A stretch of DNA of 48,988 nt, taken from sequence record OK272487.1, one strand, 5' to 3'. This DNA is from Escherichia phage JLBYU09. The notes under the pieces were generated by a model. The model made no database searches, was not told the DNA's origin, and saw only the letters and a list, made by a program, of their open reading frames with translations. The number at the start of each line of letters is the position of its first letter. Within the stretch, counting starts at the first letter, position 1. Made by a program: the position numbers and the translations under genes. Positions 1,851 through 33,711 of this stretch are shown in pieces.

Positions 1851-2116
1851 TAGTCCAGGAATTCGATTTCGCGCTCGCCAGTTAACGGATCTTTAATCCA
1901 GAATCCGAGCGCCTCACCGTAAATACCGCCATAGAATCCAAGCGCCGACAGATCCTCACCTTTAACAAATACCAGATCCCCGCTACGGCTTACGTGAGAT
2001 ACGTTAACGATAACCGGAAAGGTGCGATCCTTAAATGCAGGCCGCAGGGCGTAACATCCGTTATTGAGCAAACGTGCTTTGCGCTTAACTGGAATAGGTG
2101 CATTGATTCGCGCCAT
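1850..2116 (-). CDS. hypothetical protein
   Basis: 88 aa; AAGGAG RBS before the ATG at 2116. Confidence 0.55.
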   Translation of the reverse strand: MARINAPIPVKRKARLLNNGCYALRPAFKDRTFPVIVNVSHVSRSGDLVFVKGEDLSALGFYGGIYGEALGFWIKDPLTGEREIEFLD

Positions 2117-2129
2117 CTTTATTTCTCCT

Positions 2130-2375
2130 TCATTGTTGATCGTGTTTAACGGCCATCAGAACATCACAGGACTCGTTAATGAATTTAGCCATGCGTTTAT
2201 CATCACCAACAGGTATTAGCGCGTTAAACTCGCGTTTGCTACTGAATACCGTCACTTTATGAAACGATGCGAACGGCATCGACGGGAACTCGACTGTTTG
2301 CGTCAAGATTCGCAATCCCATCTTTTTGGCCCTTATCTGGGCCTCAGCGAGTTCAAAATCCACTTCACTAATCAT
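2130..2375 (-). CDS. hypothetical protein
   Basis: 81 aa; GAGGAG RBS; ATGA overlap with upstream gene. Confidence 0.55.
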   Translation of the reverse strand: MISEVDFELAEAQIRAKKMGLRILTQTVEFPSMPFASFHKVTVFSSKREFNALIPVGDDKRMAKFINESCDVLMAVKHDQQ

Positions 2376-2644
2376 TTCTTGATCTCCTCAGCAATAAACT
2401 TCAGGACTTTGCGCAAAAACACTTCATTATTGATGGTCGCTGGCAATTCTTCTTTTACTTCTTGCGGCAGGTAAACGTTGCCATGCCAGGTTAAGCAATC
2501 GTAGTTGATACGATAAGAGCAAAGCCACTCGCAATCGTTATCCGCTTCCCAAATGCAGAGTTGCAGAACATCACCGAAATCCTCAACAGTCAGATCCAGA
2601 CCGTGACGCTTTGCAAAGTTGAAAGTGGTTTTGCTGATGTTCAT
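2372..2644 (-). CDS. hypothetical protein
   Basis: 90 aa; AGGAGA RBS; first gene after promoter-like element at 2683-2727. Confidence 0.55.
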   Translation of the reverse strand: MNISKTTFNFAKRHGLDLTVEDFGDVLQLCIWEADNDCEWLCSYRINYDCLTWHGNVYLPQEVKEELPATINNEVFLRKVLKFIAEEIKK

Positions 2645-2682
2645 TTGCTTTCTCCTGATGGGTATCTCGTTTCGATGTGTGC

Positions 2683-2727
2683 ATTATGCCGAATCCAGTC
2701 AGGCACGTTTTAACAAAAAGTGCTATT
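2683..2727 (-). promoter_or_regulatory. conserved-box promoter-like element (box, 19-nt spacer, CATAAT)
   Basis: Minus-strand AATAGCACTTTTTGTTAAAA at 2727-2708; CATAAT at 2688-2683. Confidence 0.5.
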
Positions 2728-3316
2728 TGCTTACTGGTCATTATTCCATCTATTCCATTAATCAGGAATAACAGGAATAACTCATTCGCGATCACCTGGA
2801 TTGGGAGACTTTGAGTTTGGTCAATTTTAATCAAGTGATTAACTTTTTGTGTGGAGGGGATAGAGAAACGCTGCCCTCTTGCATCCTTTCCGACAATCCT
2901 GGCGCGCGCATCTGTTATTTCTGTTCCCCATGTTATCTCAAATAAGCCTCCGCACTTTTAGATAACAGAATCGGCGTTCATCAACAAAAAGAACAAAATA
3001 AAANTNANATATNNACNNANNANATCAATAAGTTAGTTATATATGTATTTATATTTGTTATTTACTGTTGAGCTTGTTCTATGGGTATATGGTGGAGTGG
3101 TATTGTTTGTGGTGATATGTATGTGTGATTGTATATTTTTTAATCAATGGTGATATGTGGTGATTTTTGTATGTATATATATAGGTATGGAGCAATCCTC
3201 CGTCAACCAAGTCAACAAGGTCATTTTTAAAAGAAAAACCAATGACTTAACTGAAGCATTTTGTTATCTTTAAACGCGCCACATGCCAAAAATTGTTATT
3301 AAAACACAAAAATACA

Positions 3317-3345
3317 TTGACACGTATGAAAGGCAAGGCAATAAT
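3317..3345 (+). promoter_or_regulatory. sigma70-like promoter (TTGACA, 17 nt, AATAAT)
   Basis: TTGACA at 3317-3322, AATAAT at 3340-3345; at the right end of AT-rich region A, before the first rightward gene. Confidence 0.5.
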
Positions 3346-3381
3346 GCATCCAGTTTAAACGCAACAAAAGGAGTAGACGCC

Positions 3382-3903
3382 ATGAGCGAAGAAAATATTA
3401 GCACCATGTCGCGTAGTGAGTTCTGCGATATGCTTCGCAGCCTGGGCGCGGCAATTGGTAGCGGTGAGCGTAATGATGTATTCATGCCAGCACTTTTTTT
3501 GTGCGCTAACGTGGAGAACGGCGAAGCAATTACGGCATCGTACATGCGCCAAGTGGTCAACCGTGTGCCAGAAGTAAAGCAAAAAGGCGTGATCAGCATT
3601 AAGCGAAAGGTGACTGATGAGGGTGATGGCTTTGTGTTTACGCTCACTGAAGCCAAAAGCAAGCCTCGCGTTCTGACTGGTGAAGAAATCGACGAGATCG
3701 CAGAAAAGCGCGCAGAGAAGGCGGTAAGCAAAATTCTTAATCACCTGGTAAACGTAATGCCAAATATCACAGACCTGGAAGGCGACAAACTTGCTGGGGC
3801 GTGTGAGGCTATCGGGCGCTACCAGGATATGATTCGTAAACTCGCTGGAGGAAAAGAGGATGAATANNNNATNNNNNNNNNTNTTNAAACTCGAAAACGA
3901 TAA
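3382..3903 (+). CDS. hypothetical protein (C-terminus crosses N-run)
   Basis: Track ORF 3283..3903; start moved to ATG 3382 after AAAGGAG RBS; N-run 3867-3893. Confidence 0.5.
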   Translation: MSEENISTMSRSEFCDMLRSLGAAIGSGERNDVFMPALFLCANVENGEAITASYMRQVVNRVPEVKQKGVISIKRKVTDEGDGFVFTLTEAKSKPRVLTGEEIDEIAEKRAEKAVSKILNHLVNVMPNITDLEGDKLAGACEAIGRYQDMIRKLAGGKEDEXXXXXXXXTRKR

Positions 3904-3969
3904 CCAGGCATAATAAATCACATAGGGCGGCACGGCGTCGCACAGTTAAACCAATCAGGAGAAAGCACC

Positions 3970-4863
3970 ATGTTAAAACTTGCTGACATTAAATTCCCGA
4001 TCACCTTCGAATCTCGCGGCATTGGTCATTACATTTTTACCGATGAAAAAACATGCCATAAGGTTGATATGAATAGCGACAAACTAACCCCATCAACAAT
4101 GGAGATTGAACACTTTATTGATGCACACAATACGCACTACAACGCACTTAAAGACTATGGCTATGCAATGCCAGGCTACACATGTTTGCACTACAAGCCA
4201 TATAAGGGCCAGGTGTTACCAGTGCGCTCACCGGAACGCGCAGAGATTCCGATGGTCAATATGAAAACCTGCGACTACAAAAAGCTGTGGTGCTTAAGTC
4301 TGGACAATATCAAGTATCCGATCACGTTCCACACGACTGGTAAGTCAACGATTCGCTACACATCGCGCGACAATGGCGTTTATAGCGATGGTACGAAATC
4401 AGGGTTGAAAGTTGATTTCTTTGTCAATGGTCACAACAAGTTCAATCCGCACAATGAAAAGGATAAGGTGTACTACGTGGAAGATATTACAAAACACTTG
4501 TTTGGAGAAACACCATTCGGCGGCGGTAAGACGTCAATTCAACAAATCATTGGCGAGGAGATCCACAAGGCAGCCGTTGAAATGAAAGCGCCTGGAGGAT
4601 GGCGTATTGATAAGAGCGCAATTGTCTATCAAGAAATAGTAACGCAGGGCGCAATTGAAGACATGCCACTTGCCGCCACGCTAAAAGGCGTCCAAATTGC
4701 GGATGGCACATGGTTTGAATTAACGGCAAAACCAAAGACTATCGAGATTCATGATGATGTTGTTATTCTTCTGCTTCATTACGGTAGCGCAAAAAACCGT
4801 ACCGTTGCGGGTGAGATTAGCATCAAGCGCGGAACGATGGTTAAGTGGAATGTCAAAGTGTAA
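3970..4863 (+). CDS. hypothetical protein with internal duplication
   Basis: 297 aa; AGGAGA RBS; two related modules (IKFPITFESRG and IKYPITFHTTG); stop TAA abuts the conserved box. Confidence 0.6.
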   Translation: MLKLADIKFPITFESRGIGHYIFTDEKTCHKVDMNSDKLTPSTMEIEHFIDAHNTHYNALKDYGYAMPGYTCLHYKPYKGQVLPVRSPERAEIPMVNMKTCDYKKLWCLSLDNIKYPITFHTTGKSTIRYTSRDNGVYSDGTKSGLKVDFFVNGHNKFNPHNEKDKVYYVEDITKHLFGETPFGGGKTSIQQIIGEEIHKAAVEMKAPGGWRIDKSAIVYQEIVTQGAIEDMPLAATLKGVQIADGTWFELTAKPKTIEIHDDVVILLLHYGSAKNRTVAGEISIKRGTMVKWNVKV

Positions 4864-4906
4864 ATAGCACGAATTGTTAAAACTCAAATGTGGGGCCAGG
4901 TATAAT
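4863..4906 (+). promoter_or_regulatory. conserved-box promoter-like element (box, 18-nt spacer, TATAAT)
   Basis: AATAGCACGAATTGTTAAAA at 4863-4882; TATAAT at 4901-4906 sits in the loop of GGCC...GGCC. Confidence 0.5.
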
Positions 4907-4936
4907 GGCCTCACTTTCAACGAAGGAGATAAAACG

Positions 4937-5374
4937 ATGTACATTAGCAAGAAGATGAAATGCGTTTCCGTTAATTATGGTTGTGCTGGAATGTTCAAGC
5001 CTGGCGAAATCTATACGGCGCAAAAACTGAAATCATCAACCGGATCCTTTTACGTGAGCAATAGTAAAGGGCATCGCATGTTCCTGAACGGTGGCGAAGG
5101 CACTAAGGTTATGGCGCACGCTATGGTGATTGCTGAATTTGAGGAAGTGAAAGATGGAACAAATAAGCGCGTTAAGCACAAGTTTATTGATAATCATGGC
5201 GATGCACTTGAGGTATATAAGTTCGGCGATCGCGTGTTTATTGATGGCACATTTGAAGGTGGACGCAGGCCGGATTTTAGATCGATACTCACCATTGACC
5301 AGGTGCGCAAGCTGGCGGATAAGTTAAATGATCTGGCAGATGAAATCGAATACAAGCAAATTCATTTTAATTGA
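4937..5374 (+). CDS. hypothetical protein
   Basis: Track ORF 4874..5374; start moved to ATG 4937 after GAAGGAGA RBS. Confidence 0.55.
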   Translation: MYISKKMKCVSVNYGCAGMFKPGEIYTAQKLKSSTGSFYVSNSKGHRMFLNGGEGTKVMAHAMVIAEFEEVKDGTNKRVKHKFIDNHGDALEVYKFGDRVFIDGTFEGGRRPDFRSILTIDQVRKLADKLNDLADEIEYKQIHFN

Positions 5375-5385
5375 TAGGTTTGATA

Positions 5386-5925
5386 ATGAAAAAATACGAA
5401 TTTGAACTTTGGGGCAGCAAATACCATTTTTCCACGAGCAAGCCGATTGTTATCGTTGACCTGGACGGAACGTTATCAGACGGAACGCATCGCTTACACC
5501 TGCTTCCGACAGAAGATTTGCACCTTACAGAAAGCTGGTCTGAGTTCAATAAGGCGGCTGTTGGCGATTCGCCGATTAAGAGCACGGTTGCAGTGGTTAA
5601 CGGTTTGTGGATGTCAGGATTTGCCATCGTTATCCTGACCGGACGTAGCGATGAAGTGATGGAGGACACCTGCAAATGGATTAACGAAAACGGCATCAAG
5701 TACGATGCGTTAATCATGCGCCGCAAGGAAGACAACCGCAAAGACACAATCATTAAAGAAGAAGTCTTGCGCGCTATCGGCCTAGAAAACATCGTGTGCG
5801 CTTTTGATGATTCGCCGAACGTGGTTAAGCACTTCCGCAGCCTGGGAATCACAACCTATCAGGTCACGGAATACGACAAGCCACATAATCATATCCAATC
5901 GCATGGCGTGGAGGAATTGAAATGA
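5386..5925 (+). CDS. HAD-superfamily phosphatase (polynucleotide 3-phosphatase / nucleotidase-like)
   Basis: HAD motif I VIVDLDGTL, downstream LTGR and FDDS motifs; start taken at ATG 5386. Confidence 0.6.
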   Translation: MKKYEFELWGSKYHFSTSKPIVIVDLDGTLSDGTHRLHLLPTEDLHLTESWSEFNKAAVGDSPIKSTVAVVNGLWMSGFAIVILTGRSDEVMEDTCKWINENGIKYDALIMRRKEDNRKDTIIKEEVLRAIGLENIVCAFDDSPNVVKHFRSLGITTYQVTEYDKPHNHIQSHGVEELK

Positions 5926-26963: not shown

Positions 26964-29900
26964 ATGGCTGAAAATATGATAACGGGAAGTAAGGGCGGAT
27001 CATCAAAACCTTATGTTCCGAAAGAGATGGAAGATAACCTGATCTCAATCAACAAAATCAAAATTCTTCTTGCCGTTTCCGATGGCGAGTGCGATCCAGA
27101 TTTTACACTTCGCGATCTGTATCTTGATGATGTTCCGGTAATTGCAGGCGACGGAACTGTTAACTACCAGGGTGTGAAAGCTGAATTTCGACCTGGAACG
27201 CAGACGCAAGATTACATCCAGGGGTTTACTGACACATCAAGCGAAGTGACGCTGGCGCGTGACATTACGACAACAAATCCTTATGTAATTTCCGTAACCA
27301 ACAAAACATTATCGGCTATCAGAATCAAAATGCTAATGCCAACAGGCATTAAGCAAGAGGATAACGGCGATCTTGTTGGCGTTAAGGTTACTTATGCTGT
27401 TGATATGGCTGTTGACGGAGACTCTTACAAAGAAGTATTGCGAGACACTATCGAAGGTAAAACGCGATCAGGTTACGACAGAAGCAGAAGGATTGACCTT
27501 CCGGCATTTAATGATCGCGTATTACTTAGGGTTAGAAGGGTTACGGCAGACAGCACATCTTCTCGTGTTACTGATCTGATTAAACTACAAAGTTACGCTG
27601 AGGTTATTGATGCAAAATTCCGTTACCCTCTGACTGGTCTTGTATACGTTGAATTTGACAGTGAGTTGTTCCCTAACCAGATCCCTAACATTTCAATCAA
27701 GAAGAAATGGAAGTTGATTAATGTTCCGAGCAATTACGATCCGGTAATGCGAGAGTATCACGGTTCATGGGATGGTACGTTCAAAAAAGCGTGGTCGAAC
27801 AATCCGGCGTGGGTACTTTATGACATTATCACAAACCAGCGATACGGATTAGATCAGAGAGAGCTTGGTGTGCAGGTTGACAAATGGAGTCTTTACGAAG
27901 CGGCGCAATACTGCGATCAGAAAGTGCCGGACGGAAAAGGCGGTACAGAGCCGCGTTATCTATGCGACGTTGTGATTCAAAGCCAGATTGAGGCTTATCA
28001 GCTTATTCGTGATATTTGCTCAATCTTCCGAGGAATGAGCTTTTGGAATGGAGAGAGCTTGTCAATCGTCATTGATAAGCCGCGCGATCCGTCGTACATC
28101 TTCACCAATGACAACGTTGTTGATGGTGATTTTCAGTACACAACAGCAAGCGAAAAGAGCATGTACACGCAGTGCAACGTGACGTTCGACGACGAACAAA
28201 ACATGTATCAACAGGACGTAGAGGGCGTATTCGACACCGAGGCTGCATTGCGCTTTGGATACAATCCGACAAGCATAACAGCGATCGGATGTACACGCAG
28301 GAGTGAGGCTAATCGGCGCGGTCGATGGATACTAAAAACCAACTTGCGCAGCACTACGGTAAACTTTGCTACTGGACTGGAAGGAATGATCCCATCAATA
28401 GGTGATGTGATTGCTATTGCTGACAACTTTCACAGCAGCAACCTTAAATTAAACCTATCAGGGCGCGTGATGGAAGTTTCCGGCTTGCAGGTGTTCGTTC
28501 CGTTTAAGATTGACGCGCGACCAGGTGATTTCATTATCATCAACAAACCGGACGGAAAGCCAGTTAAGCGCACAATCTCAAAAGTAAGCGGCGACGGAAA
28601 AACCATTGAACTAAACATTGGGTTTGGGTTTGAAGTTAAACCGGATACAGTTTTTGCAATCGACCGCACTGATATTGCATTGCAGCAATACGTTGTAACG
28701 AGTATCGGCAAAGGTGATGATGATGATGAATTTACATACTCCATCACGGCTGTTGAATATGACCCGAACAAATACGACGAGATTGATTACGGAGTAAACA
28801 TTGACGACAGGCCAACTTCAATTGTCCAGCCTGACACAATGGCAGCACCGGAAAACGTGCAAATATCCTCATACTCGCGAATTGTCCAGGGTGCAAGCGT
28901 TGAAACAATGGTTGTGTCGTGGGATAAAGTACCTTACGCATCGCTGTATGAAATGCAATGGCGAAAAGGTGATGGAAACTGGCTGAATACACCACAGACC
29001 GCAAACAAAGAAATTGAGGTTGAAGGTATTTATTCAGGAAACTACCAGGTAAGGGTTAGATCTGTTTCCGCTTCAGGTTCTACTTCTCCGTGGTCCAGAA
29101 TTGTGACAGCATCACTGACTGGTAAGGTAGGAGAGCCAGGCGCGCCAGTTAACTTAACAGCATCCGACAATGAAGTGTTTGGCATTCGTGTTAAGTGGGG
29201 GATGCCAGAAGGGAGCGGGGACACGGCATACATTGAGCTTCATCAGTCGCCGGATGGAACGGCTGAAAACTCAAGCCTGCTAACGCTGATCCCGTATCCA
29301 CAATATGAATACTGGCACGGTACGCTTCCGGCTGGTCATGTTGTATGGTATCGGATCAGGAGCGTGGACAGGATCGGCAACGTTTCCGGTTGGACTGATT
29401 TTGTTAGAGGTATGGCTTCAGATGATGTGGAGGCTGTTTTAGGAGATATTCTTGATAAGATTTTTGATACTGAAGCAGGTCAGGATCTTAAAGAGAACGC
29501 CATTGACAGTGCAAACAAGATAAAGGACCAGGCGCAAGCAATCATCCAGAATGCTCTTGCTAATGATGCTGATATTAAGTGGACGCGAGTACAAAACGGA
29601 AAGAGAAAGGCTGAATATGGTCACGCTCTTGAGCTTATCGCCACAGAGACTGAGGCGCGAGTTACGCAGATTGAAGAATTGAGGGCGTCAATCGACGAGG
29701 ATATTGTTTCAAGCATAAAGACAGTGCAGGAGGCTATCGCCACAGAATCTGAAACGCGAGCAACTCAAATAAACGCTTTGGATTCAAAATTCACAACTGA
29801 AATTGACGGCGTAAAACGCAATACAGCAGCAAGCATTAATCAGGTGAATCAAACAATTGCCAATGAATCAGAGGCGCGAGCGCAGGCCGTTAACGCGCTT

Positions 29901-30542
29901 GATGCGAAGTTCACAAAGGAGATCGAAGATTTAAACGGAGTCATTAAGACTGAGGTTGAGGCTAACATCTCTGAAGTGAAACAGGCTATCGCTAATGAGA
30001 CAGAAGCAAGGGTGCAGGCTGACCAGGCTTTAACAGCTAAATTCGGAGACGTTGAATCTGCATTAGCTCAAAAACTTGATTCGTGGGCTGGCGTGTCATC
30101 TGTTGGTGCTAAATACTCAATGAAATTGGGGTTAACATACAATGGGCAGAAGTACAGCGCAGGAATGGTAATGCAGCTTTCGCAGAGTTCATCCGGCCTT
30201 GTCTCGCAAATCTTGTTTGACGCGAACAGGTTCGCGATCATGACAAGTTCGACTGGCGGGGTGTATACATTGCCTTTCGTGGTGGAAAATAACCAGGTAT
30301 TCATTAACAGCCTGTTAGTTAAAAACGGTTCAATTACAAATGCCATGATCGGTAATTATATTCAGTCGAATAACTTTGTTGCCAATCAGCAGGGTTGGAG
30401 GCTGGATAAAAACGGCAGATTTGAGAACTACGGTTCTACGTCTGGAGAGGGGGCCATGAAGTTGACCAATGAAACGATAAGTGTACGAGATGCAAACGGG
30501 CGCTTGCGTGTTCAGATTGGTAGGCTTACTGGTACGTGGTAA
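26964..30542 (+). CDS. central tail fibre / host specificity protein (lambda J-like)
   Basis: 1192 aa; AAGGTGAAAAAG RBS; follows K/I-like genes; C-terminal repeats (ANESEARAQAVNALDAKFT). Confidence 0.8.
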   Translation: MAENMITGSKGGSSKPYVPKEMEDNLISINKIKILLAVSDGECDPDFTLRDLYLDDVPVIAGDGTVNYQGVKAEFRPGTQTQDYIQGFTDTSSEVTLARDITTTNPYVISVTNKTLSAIRIKMLMPTGIKQEDNGDLVGVKVTYAVDMAVDGDSYKEVLRDTIEGKTRSGYDRSRRIDLPAFNDRVLLRVRRVTADSTSSRVTDLIKLQSYAEVIDAKFRYPLTGLVYVEFDSELFPNQIPNISIKKKWKLINVPSNYDPVMREYHGSWDGTFKKAWSNNPAWVLYDIITNQRYGLDQRELGVQVDKWSLYEAAQYCDQKVPDGKGGTEPRYLCDVVIQSQIEAYQLIRDICSIFRGMSFWNGESLSIVIDKPRDPSYIFTNDNVVDGDFQYTTASEKSMYTQCNVTFDDEQNMYQQDVEGVFDTEAALRFGYNPTSITAIGCTRRSEANRRGRWILKTNLRSTTVNFATGLEGMIPSIGDVIAIADNFHSSNLKLNLSGRVMEVSGLQVFVPFKIDARPGDFIIINKPDGKPVKRTISKVSGDGKTIELNIGFGFEVKPDTVFAIDRTDIALQQYVVTSIGKGDDDDEFTYSITAVEYDPNKYDEIDYGVNIDDRPTSIVQPDTMAAPENVQISSYSRIVQGASVETMVVSWDKVPYASLYEMQWRKGDGNWLNTPQTANKEIEVEGIYSGNYQVRVRSVSASGSTSPWSRIVTASLTGKVGEPGAPVNLTASDNEVFGIRVKWGMPEGSGDTAYIELHQSPDGTAENSSLLTLIPYPQYEYWHGTLPAGHVVWYRIRSVDRIGNVSGWTDFVRGMASDDVEAVLGDILDKIFDTEAGQDLKENAIDSANKIKDQAQAIIQNALANDADIKWTRVQNGKRKAEYGHALELIATETEARVTQIEELRASIDEDIVSSIKTVQEAIATESETRATQINALDSKFTTEIDGVKRNTAASINQVNQTIANESEARAQAVNALDAKFTKEIEDLNGVIKTEVEANISEVKQAIANETEARVQADQALTAKFGDVESALAQKLDSWAGVSSVGAKYSMKLGLTYNGQKYSAGMVMQLSQSSSGLVSQILFDANRFAIMTSSTGGVYTLPFVVENNQVFINSLLVKNGSITNAMIGNYIQSNNFVANQQGWRLDKNGRFENYGSTSGEGAMKLTNETISVRDANGRLRVQIGRLTGTW

Positions 30543-30549
30543 AATCAAA

Positions 30550-30573
30550 GCGGGGCGTTTGCCCCGCATTTAT
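30550..30573 (+). terminator. terminator / attenuator hairpin
   Basis: GCGGGGC-gttt-GCCCCGC followed by ATTTAT, then the RBS of the next gene; weak U-run. Confidence 0.4.
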
Positions 30574-30585
30574 GGAGGTTTAATA

Positions 30586-30891
30586 ATGGCTGAATATGGG
30601 ATCTCAACTTGGGATGCAAACGGGAAGTATAACAACTACGGAATCAAGCCAGTTTCCGTTGTTGGTGTCATTAGCCTTGCCGCTGGTCAGACAAGCGGAT
30701 CGTGGAGCTTTAGCATTCCAAGTGGTTTTAAGGTTGGGTATGTTGTTTCACTTGATGAAGGTGCCAGGGGAGTTGGAAGGGAAATAGTAGCATCTGGAAA
30801 CACAATAAGAATTAGTCCTACATCGTCGGTTGGTGCAAATAGATATTCTTCTTCAAAGTGCGAGTTAGTTGTTTTTCTTGAGAGGGTTTAA
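30586..30891 (+). CDS. putative tail fibre accessory / receptor-binding protein (MAEYG family, short)
   Basis: Start moved to ATG 30586 (MAEYGISTWDANGK) after GGAGG RBS; paralogous to the next gene. Confidence 0.45.
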   Translation: MAEYGISTWDANGKYNNYGIKPVSVVGVISLAAGQTSGSWSFSIPSGFKVGYVVSLDEGARGVGREIVASGNTIRISPTSSVGANRYSSSKCELVVFLERV

Positions 30892-30892
30892 A

Positions 30893-31531
30893 ATGGCTGA
30901 GTATGGAGCAATGTTATCTTTATCAAATGGGAATCCATTTGTCACACCAAAATCAACGCCATTTTGCTTATATGGCAAGTACACTTATTCATCTTCAGGT
31001 ACTTCTGCCTATCATAGTGCAAGCGCAAATATACCAGTAAACCAATCTTATCCATGCATGGCATTTATAAAAACAACAAACACACAGCAGCCAACTGCAT
31101 TAATAGCTTACAGGAATGGTGGCAACATTTATGTAAACGGAGGAAATCCATATGGTCAATCATTTACAATGACTGTTTATATATTTGCCATATTCCCTCA
31201 AACTCTACCCAAATATGGTATGGCTATATGGGATGCAAGCGGCAAGTTGGTTTTAACTAATGAAAGCAGGGTGCTAACAGATCTTGTTACAATTGGTACT
31301 CCTGGTTCTTCAGGTGGAACGAATATAGATCAAACGTTATCTGGTTCTTATGCCGTTTGCCCTTCAAGGCTTGGTGCGGTTATAGGTATGGGCGCTTCTG
31401 ATATATATACATCATGCAGGTATAATGGTTCAAGCACAAGGATAGGTGCAGCAAGGACAACGCCAGGAACAGGTTCTATAACAAATAACGGAAATTCAAT
31501 AATTGCAATAAAGACTGATATTTACGACTAA
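30893..31531 (+). CDS. putative receptor-binding protein (MAEYG family, long)
   Basis: Start moved to ATG 30893 (MAEYGAMLSLSNG); internal repeat KYGMAIWDASGK; last rightward structural gene, convergent with the Cor-like gene. Confidence 0.45.
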   Translation: MAEYGAMLSLSNGNPFVTPKSTPFCLYGKYTYSSSGTSAYHSASANIPVNQSYPCMAFIKTTNTQQPTALIAYRNGGNIYVNGGNPYGQSFTMTVYIFAIFPQTLPKYGMAIWDASGKLVLTNESRVLTDLVTIGTPGSSGGTNIDQTLSGSYAVCPSRLGAVIGMGASDIYTSCRYNGSSTRIGAARTTPGTGSITNNGNSIIAIKTDIYD

Positions 31532-31534
31532 TGA

Positions 31535-31560
31535 AAAGGGGCTTTCGCCCCTTTATTTTT
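31535..31560. terminator. bidirectional rho-independent terminator
   Basis: AAAGGGGC-tttc-GCCCCTTT flanked by A-run and T-run, between convergent genes. Confidence 0.6.
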
Positions 31561-31562
31561 AT

Positions 31563-31790
31563 TCACAGACTGCAATCAGCGTTTTTAAAGTTATCAATAC
31601 TTACCCACTGAAAATTAAACGGATAGCCAGCCTTAACAAGAGTGCGGTCGCCAACTCGTTTCACTCCGAAAATAGCAACTGAATACTGCATTCCGCTATT
31701 TTCATAAATAGCCGTGCATTCACGTTTAGGCATATTTGCACATCCAGTCAGTGCAACGGCTGCAATCAAAACGGCGATTAACTTTTTCAT
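31563..31790 (-). CDS. cor: Cor-like superinfection-exclusion lipoprotein
   Basis: 75 aa; signal peptide plus lipobox LTGC; convergent with the receptor-binding gene, as recalled for T1 and phi80 cor; AAGGAGA RBS. Confidence 0.55.
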   Translation of the reverse strand: MKKLIAVLIAAVALTGCANMPKRECTAIYENSGMQYSVAIFGVKRVGDRTLVKAGYPFNFQWVSIDNFKNADCSL

Positions 31791-31820
31791 TTTGTGTCTC
31801 CTTAGTTGTTATTGGTTGCA

Positions 31821-31864
31821 ACTATACACGATCTTGCGGTGGGCGTTTAGCAAAAAGTGCTATT
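31821..31864 (-). promoter_or_regulatory. conserved-box promoter-like element (box variant, 19-nt spacer, TATAGT)
   Basis: Minus-strand AATAGCACTTTTTGCTAAA at 31864-31846; TATAGT at 31826-31821; upstream of the Cor-like gene. Confidence 0.5.
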
Positions 31865-32231
31865 CTTGTTCTTTTTGTTATCCGGTGTTCTCAAATCTGC
31901 GGAGTCTTAAATTTAGCTCAAAAAGTGAACAACAATAGAGCGCAATACATACAGATAAATATATACATACATATAAATCAATAAGTTAGTAGTATATATA
32001 TTCATGTTTGTTCTTTATTGTTATCTATGTTTTGTGTGATTTTGTGCGTCTGGTGATTTTTCTGTGATTATGCATGTGTCAGTGGTTATGTGTGTCTATA
32101 TATCTATATCCGGCGCAAATGAGGGAACAAGAGAACAAAAAGACAACAAAGGTATTTATCAATCACTTACATGTGAATTTTGTTATCCAATTCTCCTAGA
32201 ACGTTGTTAGAACAGAAAAAACAAAATAACT

Positions 32232-33432: not shown

Positions 33433-33711
33433 ATGGAAAACAAACAAGTGTCAGAGGTAGCAGTTCATATCAATAATTTTGCAACTGGCATGGCTATGTT
33501 GCTTCGTGATTTTGTTGCGCCGCTTGATCCAACGGCAGGCGCAGAAGAAATGGAGTACATCAGAAAAGTAATGGATGCAGTCGATAACGTCGTACTTGTT
33601 GCAACAATGAGCGAAGACAACGAGGAAGCAATCAAGGCGGTAAAAGAAAGCTCTGATCGCATGATGGAAAGTCTGATTAAATTACACACCAAAGAAGAAA
33701 CAAAACATTAA
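33433..33711 (+). CDS. hypothetical protein
   Basis: 92 aa; AAGGAAATAAAC RBS. Confidence 0.5.
   Translation: MENKQVSEVAVHINNFATGMAMLLRDFVAPLDPTAGAEEMEYIRKVMDAVDNVVLVATMSEDNEEAIKAVKESSDRMMESLIKLHTKEETKH

Follow-up and report, generated by a model that had tools for sequence, protein, structure and literature searches.

The gene tonA (fhuA) was named after phage T1, yet the FhuA-binding protein of T1-like phages has never been shown experimentally. A 'bona fide RBP locus' for receptor-binding proteins (RBPs), consisting of two small genes directly 3' of a gpJ homologue together with a Cor lipoprotein, was described in the BASEL paper by Maffei et al. (2021; PMC8594841), and the locus analyzed here, from Escherichia phage JLBYU09 (sequence record OK272487.1), is a member of its FhuA allele. 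The window, i.e. the whole stretch of DNA analyzed, comprises 48,988 nucleotides (nt), and the two small genes, hereafter A and B, lie at positions 30586-31531. The published assignment of this locus to FhuA-type RBPs was computational (PMC8594841; 10.64898/2026.04.02.716166). In the latter work, a 2026 preprint, the locus was docked using AlphaFold3, the receptor-specific families were called 'unrelated' and swaps were tested in T-even phages only. In another 2026 paper (PMC13164509), no Foldseek or HHpred matches were obtained for A or B and a role in exclusion was assumed. Current papers are split between J as the binder, A and B as membrane or exclusion proteins, and A and B as predicted RBPs. 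The cassette itself was reportedly noted in T1, HK022, N15, ES18 and phi80 by Wietzorrek et al. in 2006. From the results described below, A and B probably form a tail-tip receptor-binding module specific for FhuA, held non-covalently on the distal part of a gpJ-like trimeric fibre, with B as the RBP proper.

The fibre gene, the gene pair and three copies of a short arm motif were located as follows.

26964-30542, plus strand: gene J, gpJ-like central tail fibre or tail tip protein of 1192 amino acids (aa), with Pfam matches FNIII-A_GpJ, Phage-tail_3 and Phage_Tail_Tip
30586-30891, plus strand: gene A, 101 aa, phrog_557, one N-terminal arm and a predicted six-stranded beta-sandwich
30592-30627, plus strand: arm motif copy 1, A residues 3-14, EYGISTWDANGK
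30893-31531, plus strand: gene B, 212 aa, phrog_425, two predicted beta-sandwich domains
30899-30934, plus strand: arm motif copy 2, B residues 3-14, EYGAMLSLSNGN, running into an invariant NGNPFVTPxSTPFCLY segment
31205-31258, plus strand: inter-domain linker and arm motif copy 3, B residues 105-122, LPKYGMAIWDASGKLVLT, at the start of the C-terminal domain of B

An earlier note on this DNA, made from the letters alone, had stated that both genes start with MAEYG and that B carries an internal copy of the N-terminal module near residue 107 (nt 31211). Coordinates and translations were as claimed, with A (101 aa) beginning MAEYGISTWDANGK and B (212 aa) beginning MAEYGAMLSLSNGN, and the internal copy was recovered at residues 105-118 of B (LPKYGMAIWDASGK), of which residues 107-118 (KYGMAIWDASGK) coincide with the start of the second predicted domain. 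Using pairwise BLASTP, A1-14 and B105-118 were aligned with 7/14 identical and 12/14 positive residues (E-value (E) 5e-4), and A1-14 was aligned with B1-14 at E 0.21. Following construction of family profiles from 109 A homologues and 112 B homologues, profile-profile comparison matched A3-14 to B107-118 at E 3e-5, and at E 1e-6 (91% probability) when more diverse profiles were compared using hhalign. Scores were judged against 150 column-shuffled controls. The arm of A against the internal arm of B scored 33.3 (null 12.6 ± 2.7), and the N-termini of A and B scored 22.9 (null 11.6 ± 2.4); neither score was reached by any of the 150 shuffles.

The earlier note had read this repeat as a tandem duplication of a module. 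With the diverse profiles, obtained by adding divergent members, A was aligned with the entire N-terminal domain of B over 83 columns (score 38.5, E 7e-7; null 10.3 ± 2.1, maximum 17.4). Following deletion of both N-terminal arms, the score was still 25.0 (E 8e-5; null 8.6 ± 1.6, maximum 12.2). By these comparisons, A is a genuine paralogue of the B N-domain, and this half of the duplication claim stood. For the other half, the C-terminal domain of B shares the arm (E 1e-6), but its body had no detectable sequence similarity to A or to the B N-domain (E 0.3-0.4). At the sequence level, the arm motif alone is thus demonstrably a repeat in the C-terminal domain. Because A is homologous to the B N-domain over its full length and a third arm is found at the second domain of B, modular duplication appears to be the simplest history of both genes.

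The N-termini of both families follow M-x(0-2)-[YWF]-G, and each module opens with a hairpin arm of consensus [YW]G-x-x-x-[WY]-[DN]-x-x-G. Conservation in the family peaks at the internal motif of B (LPx[YW]G[MLI]A[IV]WDAxGKLVLTNESRVL), where P106, G109 and W113 do not vary; entropy over residues 91-130 is 0.27-0.84. Within each allele, the arm of A and the internal arm of B are alike (TWDANG/IWDASG, IYDEQG/FYNANG, IYNRNN/MYNPDG).

Structure prediction yielded for B a model with a mean predicted local distance difference test score (pLDDT) of 93.5 and a predicted template modelling score of 0.90, consisting of two all-beta domains with the boundary at the linker IFPQTLPKYG. The internal motif forms the first hairpin of predicted domain 2 (strands 111-113 and 119-122). 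A was modelled as a six-stranded sandwich (pLDDT 88.5), the strands of which (25-31, 38-41, 48-55, 65-70, 73-78 and 92-100) nearly coincide with those of the B N-domain (25-33, 41-48, 55-62, 69-75, 78-85 and 92-99). In both proteins, the N-terminal 20-30 residues combine the highest family conservation with the lowest pLDDT (60-85 in A, 72-80 in B). Such a combination is typical of segments that acquire their fold on a partner. The variable stretches of B are residues 31-50, 61-90 and 161-200. Near residue 167, in the C-terminal domain (31205-31528), the 212-aa form of B (JLBYU41, HK022) lacks about 11 residues of the 224-230-aa Dhillonvirus/T1-type forms, and the FhuA loop required (L8, L4 or no single loop) reportedly differs between the phage groups carrying the 212-aa and the 224-230-aa forms.

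No signal peptide, lipobox, transmembrane or hydrophobic segment was found in A or B, and both N-termini are hydrophilic. The maximum 19-residue hydropathy (KD19) was 1.05 for A and 0.93 for B, compared with 1.69 for Cor, at its N-terminus. Sequence searches of the PDB with both family profiles gave chance matches only, Foldseek of A against BFVD gave only weak matches to small beta-sandwiches, with no link to B or DUF6453, and no Pfam match to DUF6453 (PF20051) was obtained for A or B at E <= 1.

The earlier note had proposed HHpred and structure prediction for checking whether the pair encodes receptor-binding or fibre-tip proteins. Phage Rtp has the LptD-type RBP Rtp44, a member of phrog_1265 (E 9e-99). 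B also matched this family (E 2e-5), in an alignment that pairs B38-194 with positions 154-303 of the 332-position profile. Using hhalign, B56-128 was aligned with Rtp44 156-229 at E 1-2e-3. The segment B105-122 is common to Rtp44 residues 193-229, and the linker is visibly shared by the two proteins (YIFAIFPQTLPKYGMAIWDASGKLVLTNESRVL in B, LIIFQQVAPTPGPGINIFNSNNQCTFSTLTRPLV in Rtp44). In the predicted model, B shares its fold with the LptD-binding RBPs Rtp44 and RBP_Oeko (PDB 9rpt). On both counts, the proposed receptor-binding role gained support. When B, or the concatenate of A and B, was aligned with Rtp44 using hhalign, two registers with similar scores were obtained. The PHROG match and the local best match favour B as the counterpart of the last two thirds of the single chain, of which B is a distant homologue. 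About 115 N-terminal residues of the RBP are left unmatched by B, roughly the size of A, and A and B add up to 313 aa (101 + 212), compared with 309-311 aa for the single-chain RBPs. A 'split RBP', with A standing in for the N-terminal, tail-proximal third of the single-chain proteins, is considered likely.

The region 30400-31900 is 100% identical to that of Escherichia phage JLBYU41 (OK272479; Drexlerviridae, Tempevirinae, Hanrivervirus), published as an FhuA-dependent isolate (PMC10373560), and 93-97% identical to those of Henu8, aaroes, grams and others. The Warwickvirus JLBYU07 (OK272485) encodes a J of the same length that is 90% identical to that of the JLBYU09 locus without gaps, and 77% identical over the last 52 residues. 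Its locus at 4259-5422 (minus strand) is inverted and forms one operon, convergent with J, that encodes a Cor-like lipoprotein, A' and B'. A' (92 aa, phrog_557) begins MAEYGYAIYDEQGRNV and is 33% identical to A; B' (204 aa, phrog_425) begins MYGMSIKKPDGS, carries an internal HGIAFYNANGEMV and a C-terminal HYD, and is 25% identical to B. JLBYU07 was reported not to be FhuA-dependent, which puzzled its authors, who had taken J as the RBP. A JLBYU41-like J in a phage that does not use FhuA is explained if A and B, not J, set specificity; between JLBYU41 and JLBYU07, it is the A/B allele and not J that is associated with FhuA dependence. Relatives of the JLBYU07-type allele are found in the BtuB-dependent phage PTXU06 (57%) and in many Stx2-converting phages (~46%), with about 100 Stx phage records matching B' at ~46%.

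Gene context was compared across phages. By tblastn, 351 phage records contained B and 345 contained A, and the counts per taxon agree (B/A: Escherichia 179/177, Klebsiella 111/111). Cor was detected in 242 records only, including 2 of the 111 Klebsiella phages, and the A/B pair is thus independent of cor. In Klebsiella phage Sushi, J-A-B is followed by a terminator and a convergent tail-fibre gene, without cor; in the lambdoid phage HK225, J, A, B and cor are all on one strand. In IMG/VR, the order J-A-B was kept in 80/80 related loci, with A always upstream of B and an A-B spacer of -1, 0 or +1 nt. This synteny, together with the Rtp44-family match (E 2e-5) and the JLBYU07 contrast, agrees with the fibre-tip function that the earlier note had suggested. 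Exhaustive HMMER searching with the A profile yielded no A-B or J-A fusions, only stand-alone proteins of ~100 aa and low-complexity giants. One candidate fusion, P0219, comprises 139 aa and comes from a 1.37-Mb ENA contig. Its gene call leads from the C-terminal end of J (RVQVGRLTG) across three residues to an A-like MAYGIQTWDASG and then runs into a frameshift. As a frameshifted fragment of a degraded prophage it was not used; most likely it stems from a prophage in decay and is not a natural fusion of J and A.

The last ~50 residues of J, ending ...NGRLRVQIGRLTGTW, track the locus type, both in the present sequence comparison and in the preprint (10.64898/2026.04.02.716166, Fig. S12). This tip is common to HK225 and Sushi, both with A/B-type loci, and diverges in Rtp, with its LptD-type locus. 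A tip of the same type is found on a Stx-phage fibre preceding an A/B pair. In Stx phage TL-2011c (NC_019442), the C-terminal half of the 422-aa fibre gp61 (1934-3202) aligns to distal J and ends NGRLAVRIGRLR. An unannotated 92-aa A-like open reading frame with a TTG start (3217-3495, plus strand; MEYGFAIYNRNN...) lies between gp61 and the B-like gp62 (3501-4118). From this order, the J-tip/A/B cassette also occurs in short-tailed Stx-converting phages. The constant partner of A and B is the J-type fibre tip, not cor, and the architecture of two genes with three arms is retained in phages of different receptor types. Residues 9-19 of A (WDANGKYNNYG; 30610-30642) resemble J residues 1147-1157 near the fibre tip (LDKNGRFENYG; 30402-30434). 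No homology is claimed for this likeness, as hhalign gave E 0.026, inside the range of the shuffled controls; a hairpin signature of a common kind may account for it.

The proposed module would work as follows. A and B would assemble on the distal tip of the trimeric J through their conserved arms, with the last ~50 residues of J as the putative docking site. Since the arms are the most conserved segments and yet the least confidently modelled in isolation, they would probably take up their fold against a partner, which may be the J tip, A or a neighbouring module, thereby chaining J, A and B. A, as a one-module paralogue of the B N-domain, would serve as adaptor or accessory subunit. B, with its two predicted, possibly lectin-like beta-sandwich domains, would contact FhuA, and its variable stretches (see above) are the candidate contacts. 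Cor, encoded by the convergent gene, would then block FhuA in infected cells as the cognate FhuA blocker. Incorporation into virions, the protein that touches FhuA, the docking order of J, A and B, and the stoichiometry are each points that we infer. In a bolder version, which we regard as doubtful, the three homologous arms (A N-terminus, B N-terminus and B105-122) would each engage one J chain or chain the modules head-to-tail. A pseudo-threefold A/B heterodimer would thereby cap the fibre and break its symmetry for a single monomeric FhuA barrel, and the FhuA-, BtuB-, Stx- and LptD-type proteins, instead of being 'unrelated families', would make up a single ancient RBP superfamily whose members are freely swappable and come in split and fused forms.

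Several points weigh against assigning receptor binding to A and B. No published experiment was found in which A or B was detected in virions or bound to FhuA, literature searches for virion proteomics or genetics of the two genes gave no result, and cryo-electron microscopy of T1 did not resolve distal gp33 or any RBP (PMC11945409). The sequence links between B and LptD-type RBPs are modest, at E 1e-3 to 2e-5, and permit a second register; A scored weakly against the N-terminal third of these RBPs (E 0.02-0.05). Other differences between the JLBYU41 and JLBYU07 genomes may also underlie the receptor contrast. The homologous genes of Warwickvirus and Rtp are co-transcribed with an exclusion lipoprotein and not with J. 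The argument that membership of the same operon as tail genes makes A and B structural was dropped for this inverted, cor-linked order, because of which operon context is not decisive. Finally, several papers treat J itself as the RBP (including PMC10373560), and one proposes a superinfection-exclusion role for A and B (PMC13164509).

These published views, and a third possibility, were weighed against the same evidence. That the gpJ C-terminal domain binds FhuA, with A and B acting after binding (for example in triggering, the TonB-dependent irreversible step or outer-membrane penetration) or modulating host range, is in line with lambda J, which binds LamB directly, and with the TolC-, LamB- and NupG-specific relatives, which use J C-terminal domains (PMC8594841; 10.64898/2026.04.02.716166); for T1 and JLBYU41, models with J as the RBP have been presented in two papers. 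It is nevertheless quite improbable, given that J is 90% identical between an FhuA-dependent and a non-dependent phage in which A and B are replaced, that in unrelated phages the use of FhuA goes with the A/B/cor cassette (PMC8594841; PMC13164509), and that B is homologous to a protein seen receptor-bound by cryo-electron microscopy. An assembly chaperone role for A, which would be non-structural and act on B or the J tip so that only B (or B and J) is present in the virion and binds FhuA, accounts for a small protein that is obligately paired and translationally coupled with B and always stand-alone, and such neighbours were named 'accessory proteins' in the preprint (10.64898/2026.04.02.716166). 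A is, however, paralogous over its full length to a structural domain of B, has the same conserved arm, and lies upstream of its putative client, whereas Tfa-type chaperones are usually encoded downstream. Moreover, the single-chain LptD-type RBPs keep an N-terminal region of the same size in the mature protein, and a chaperone role is considered unlikely.

The names used in databases imply a further role. A is annotated as 'hypothetical' and B as 'putative membrane associated protein' in GenBank; elsewhere, A is named 'outer membrane protein', B 'membrane associated protein', and the term 'moron' is used (RefSeq, PHROG). The idea that A and B are membrane proteins aiding Cor in superinfection exclusion, which underlies the RefSeq and PHROG names and was assumed in the KanT1 paper (PMC13164509), is compatible with the adjacency of cor in most E. 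coli phages and with the single operon formed by the three Warwickvirus genes. As A and B have no signal peptide, lipobox or hydrophobic segment, unlike Cor, the membrane names are unsupported (for KD19 values, see above). About 110 Klebsiella phages carry A and B without detectable cor, the invariant neighbour is the J-type fibre gene and not cor, no PADLOC matches were obtained, and B is predicted to have the fold of a proven virion RBP. An exclusion role is accordingly rated very improbable, and the proposal retained is that of A and B as the FhuA-specific module on the fibre tip.

In PHROG, A was assigned to phrog_557 (E 2.9e-30) and B to phrog_425 (E 7.6e-69); no family for A or B was found in Pfam, NCBIfam or PADLOC. 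The elements flanking the pair are listed below.

30550-30567, plus strand: GC-rich hairpin between J and A, -16.5 kcal/mol, z -2.5
31535-31554, both strands: hairpin terminator common to the convergent A-B and cor transcripts, -13.5 kcal/mol on the plus strand and -13.9 kcal/mol on the minus strand
31563-31790, minus strand: cor, superinfection-exclusion lipoprotein of 75 aa, lipobox LTGC, NCBIfam NF047972, phrog_1119

The Cor-like neighbour and the bidirectional terminator named in the earlier note were both recovered: Cor matched NF047972 at 70.3 bits (cut-off 31) and phrog_1119 at E 5e-29, and the terminator hairpin lies at 31535-31554. The hairpin after J, which the note had called attenuator-like, is real and is followed by a weak U tract and the ribosome-binding site of A (GGAGG, 30574-30578), but a role as attenuator is not general. 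The J-A spacer is -1 or +1 nt in 71/78 related loci and of the hairpin type (43-45 nt) in only 7/78, confined to Hanrivervirus-type loci, and the terminator scan flagged 30550-30567 as terminator-like on the minus strand only. Beyond cor, a recombination module (exoVIII, Erf, SSB) was found. Within it, between exonuclease VIII and the Erf-like recombinase, a 92-aa open reading frame (33433-33711, plus strand) is named 'tail length tape-measure protein' in JLBYU41 and Henu8, which looks like an annotation error. Furthermore, 18 GenBank records (MG065636-MG065688) labelled as Campylobacter jejuni phages match the locus, with 96-97% nucleotide identity for the closest (among them A16a, A15b and A14a/b). 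Probably, these records are coliphages that were mislabelled or entered as contaminants.

The evidence points to B, with its paralogue A, as the FhuA binder of these phages, and the question is directly testable. JLBYU41 and JLBYU07, with a 90% identical J and different A, B and cor, constitute a natural swap pair. Annotation could be corrected in ~350 phage genomes, and receptor prediction from sequence would gain a firmer basis. The compact cassette of J tip, A, B and cor could also be used for retargeting small siphoviruses.

Compared with the LptD-binding RBPs Rtp44 and RBP_Oeko, which are single chains of 309-311 aa, the JLBYU09 locus encodes two chains of 101 and 212 aa. Identity to B is 14%, the receptor of the former is LptDE and not FhuA, and in Rtp the RBP gene lies on the strand opposite to J, whereas A and B of JLBYU09 lie on the same strand as J. 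The BtuB-associated or Warwickvirus alleles and the Stx alleles comprise the same two genes, a small protein starting with MAEYG or MEYG followed by a protein of ~204 aa. The latter opens with a YG arm, carries [HY]GIA[FM]YN..G as its internal arm and has YD at the C-terminus, and the pair belongs to phrog_557 and phrog_425, though only 25-33% identical to A and B. The Warwickvirus pair is inverted and co-transcribed with the lipoprotein, whereas the Stx pair lies between the gene for a short 422-aa fibre and lom. In T5, FhuA is the target of pb5, a dedicated monomeric RBP that sits on the central fibre tip through non-covalent contacts, and the proposed A/B module would work alike by analogy; no sequence or fold similarity of A or B to pb5 was found. 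The small T5 lipoprotein Llp blocks FhuA from the periplasmic side, as is proposed for Cor.

In short, loci of this kind were known already, and so was the phage from publication. Previous work established the association between locus and receptor and provided docking; added here are the paralogy of A and the B N-domain with the arm occurring three times, the homology of B to an LptD-type RBP, the independence of cor and the contrast between JLBYU41 and JLBYU07, which are modest and computational additions.

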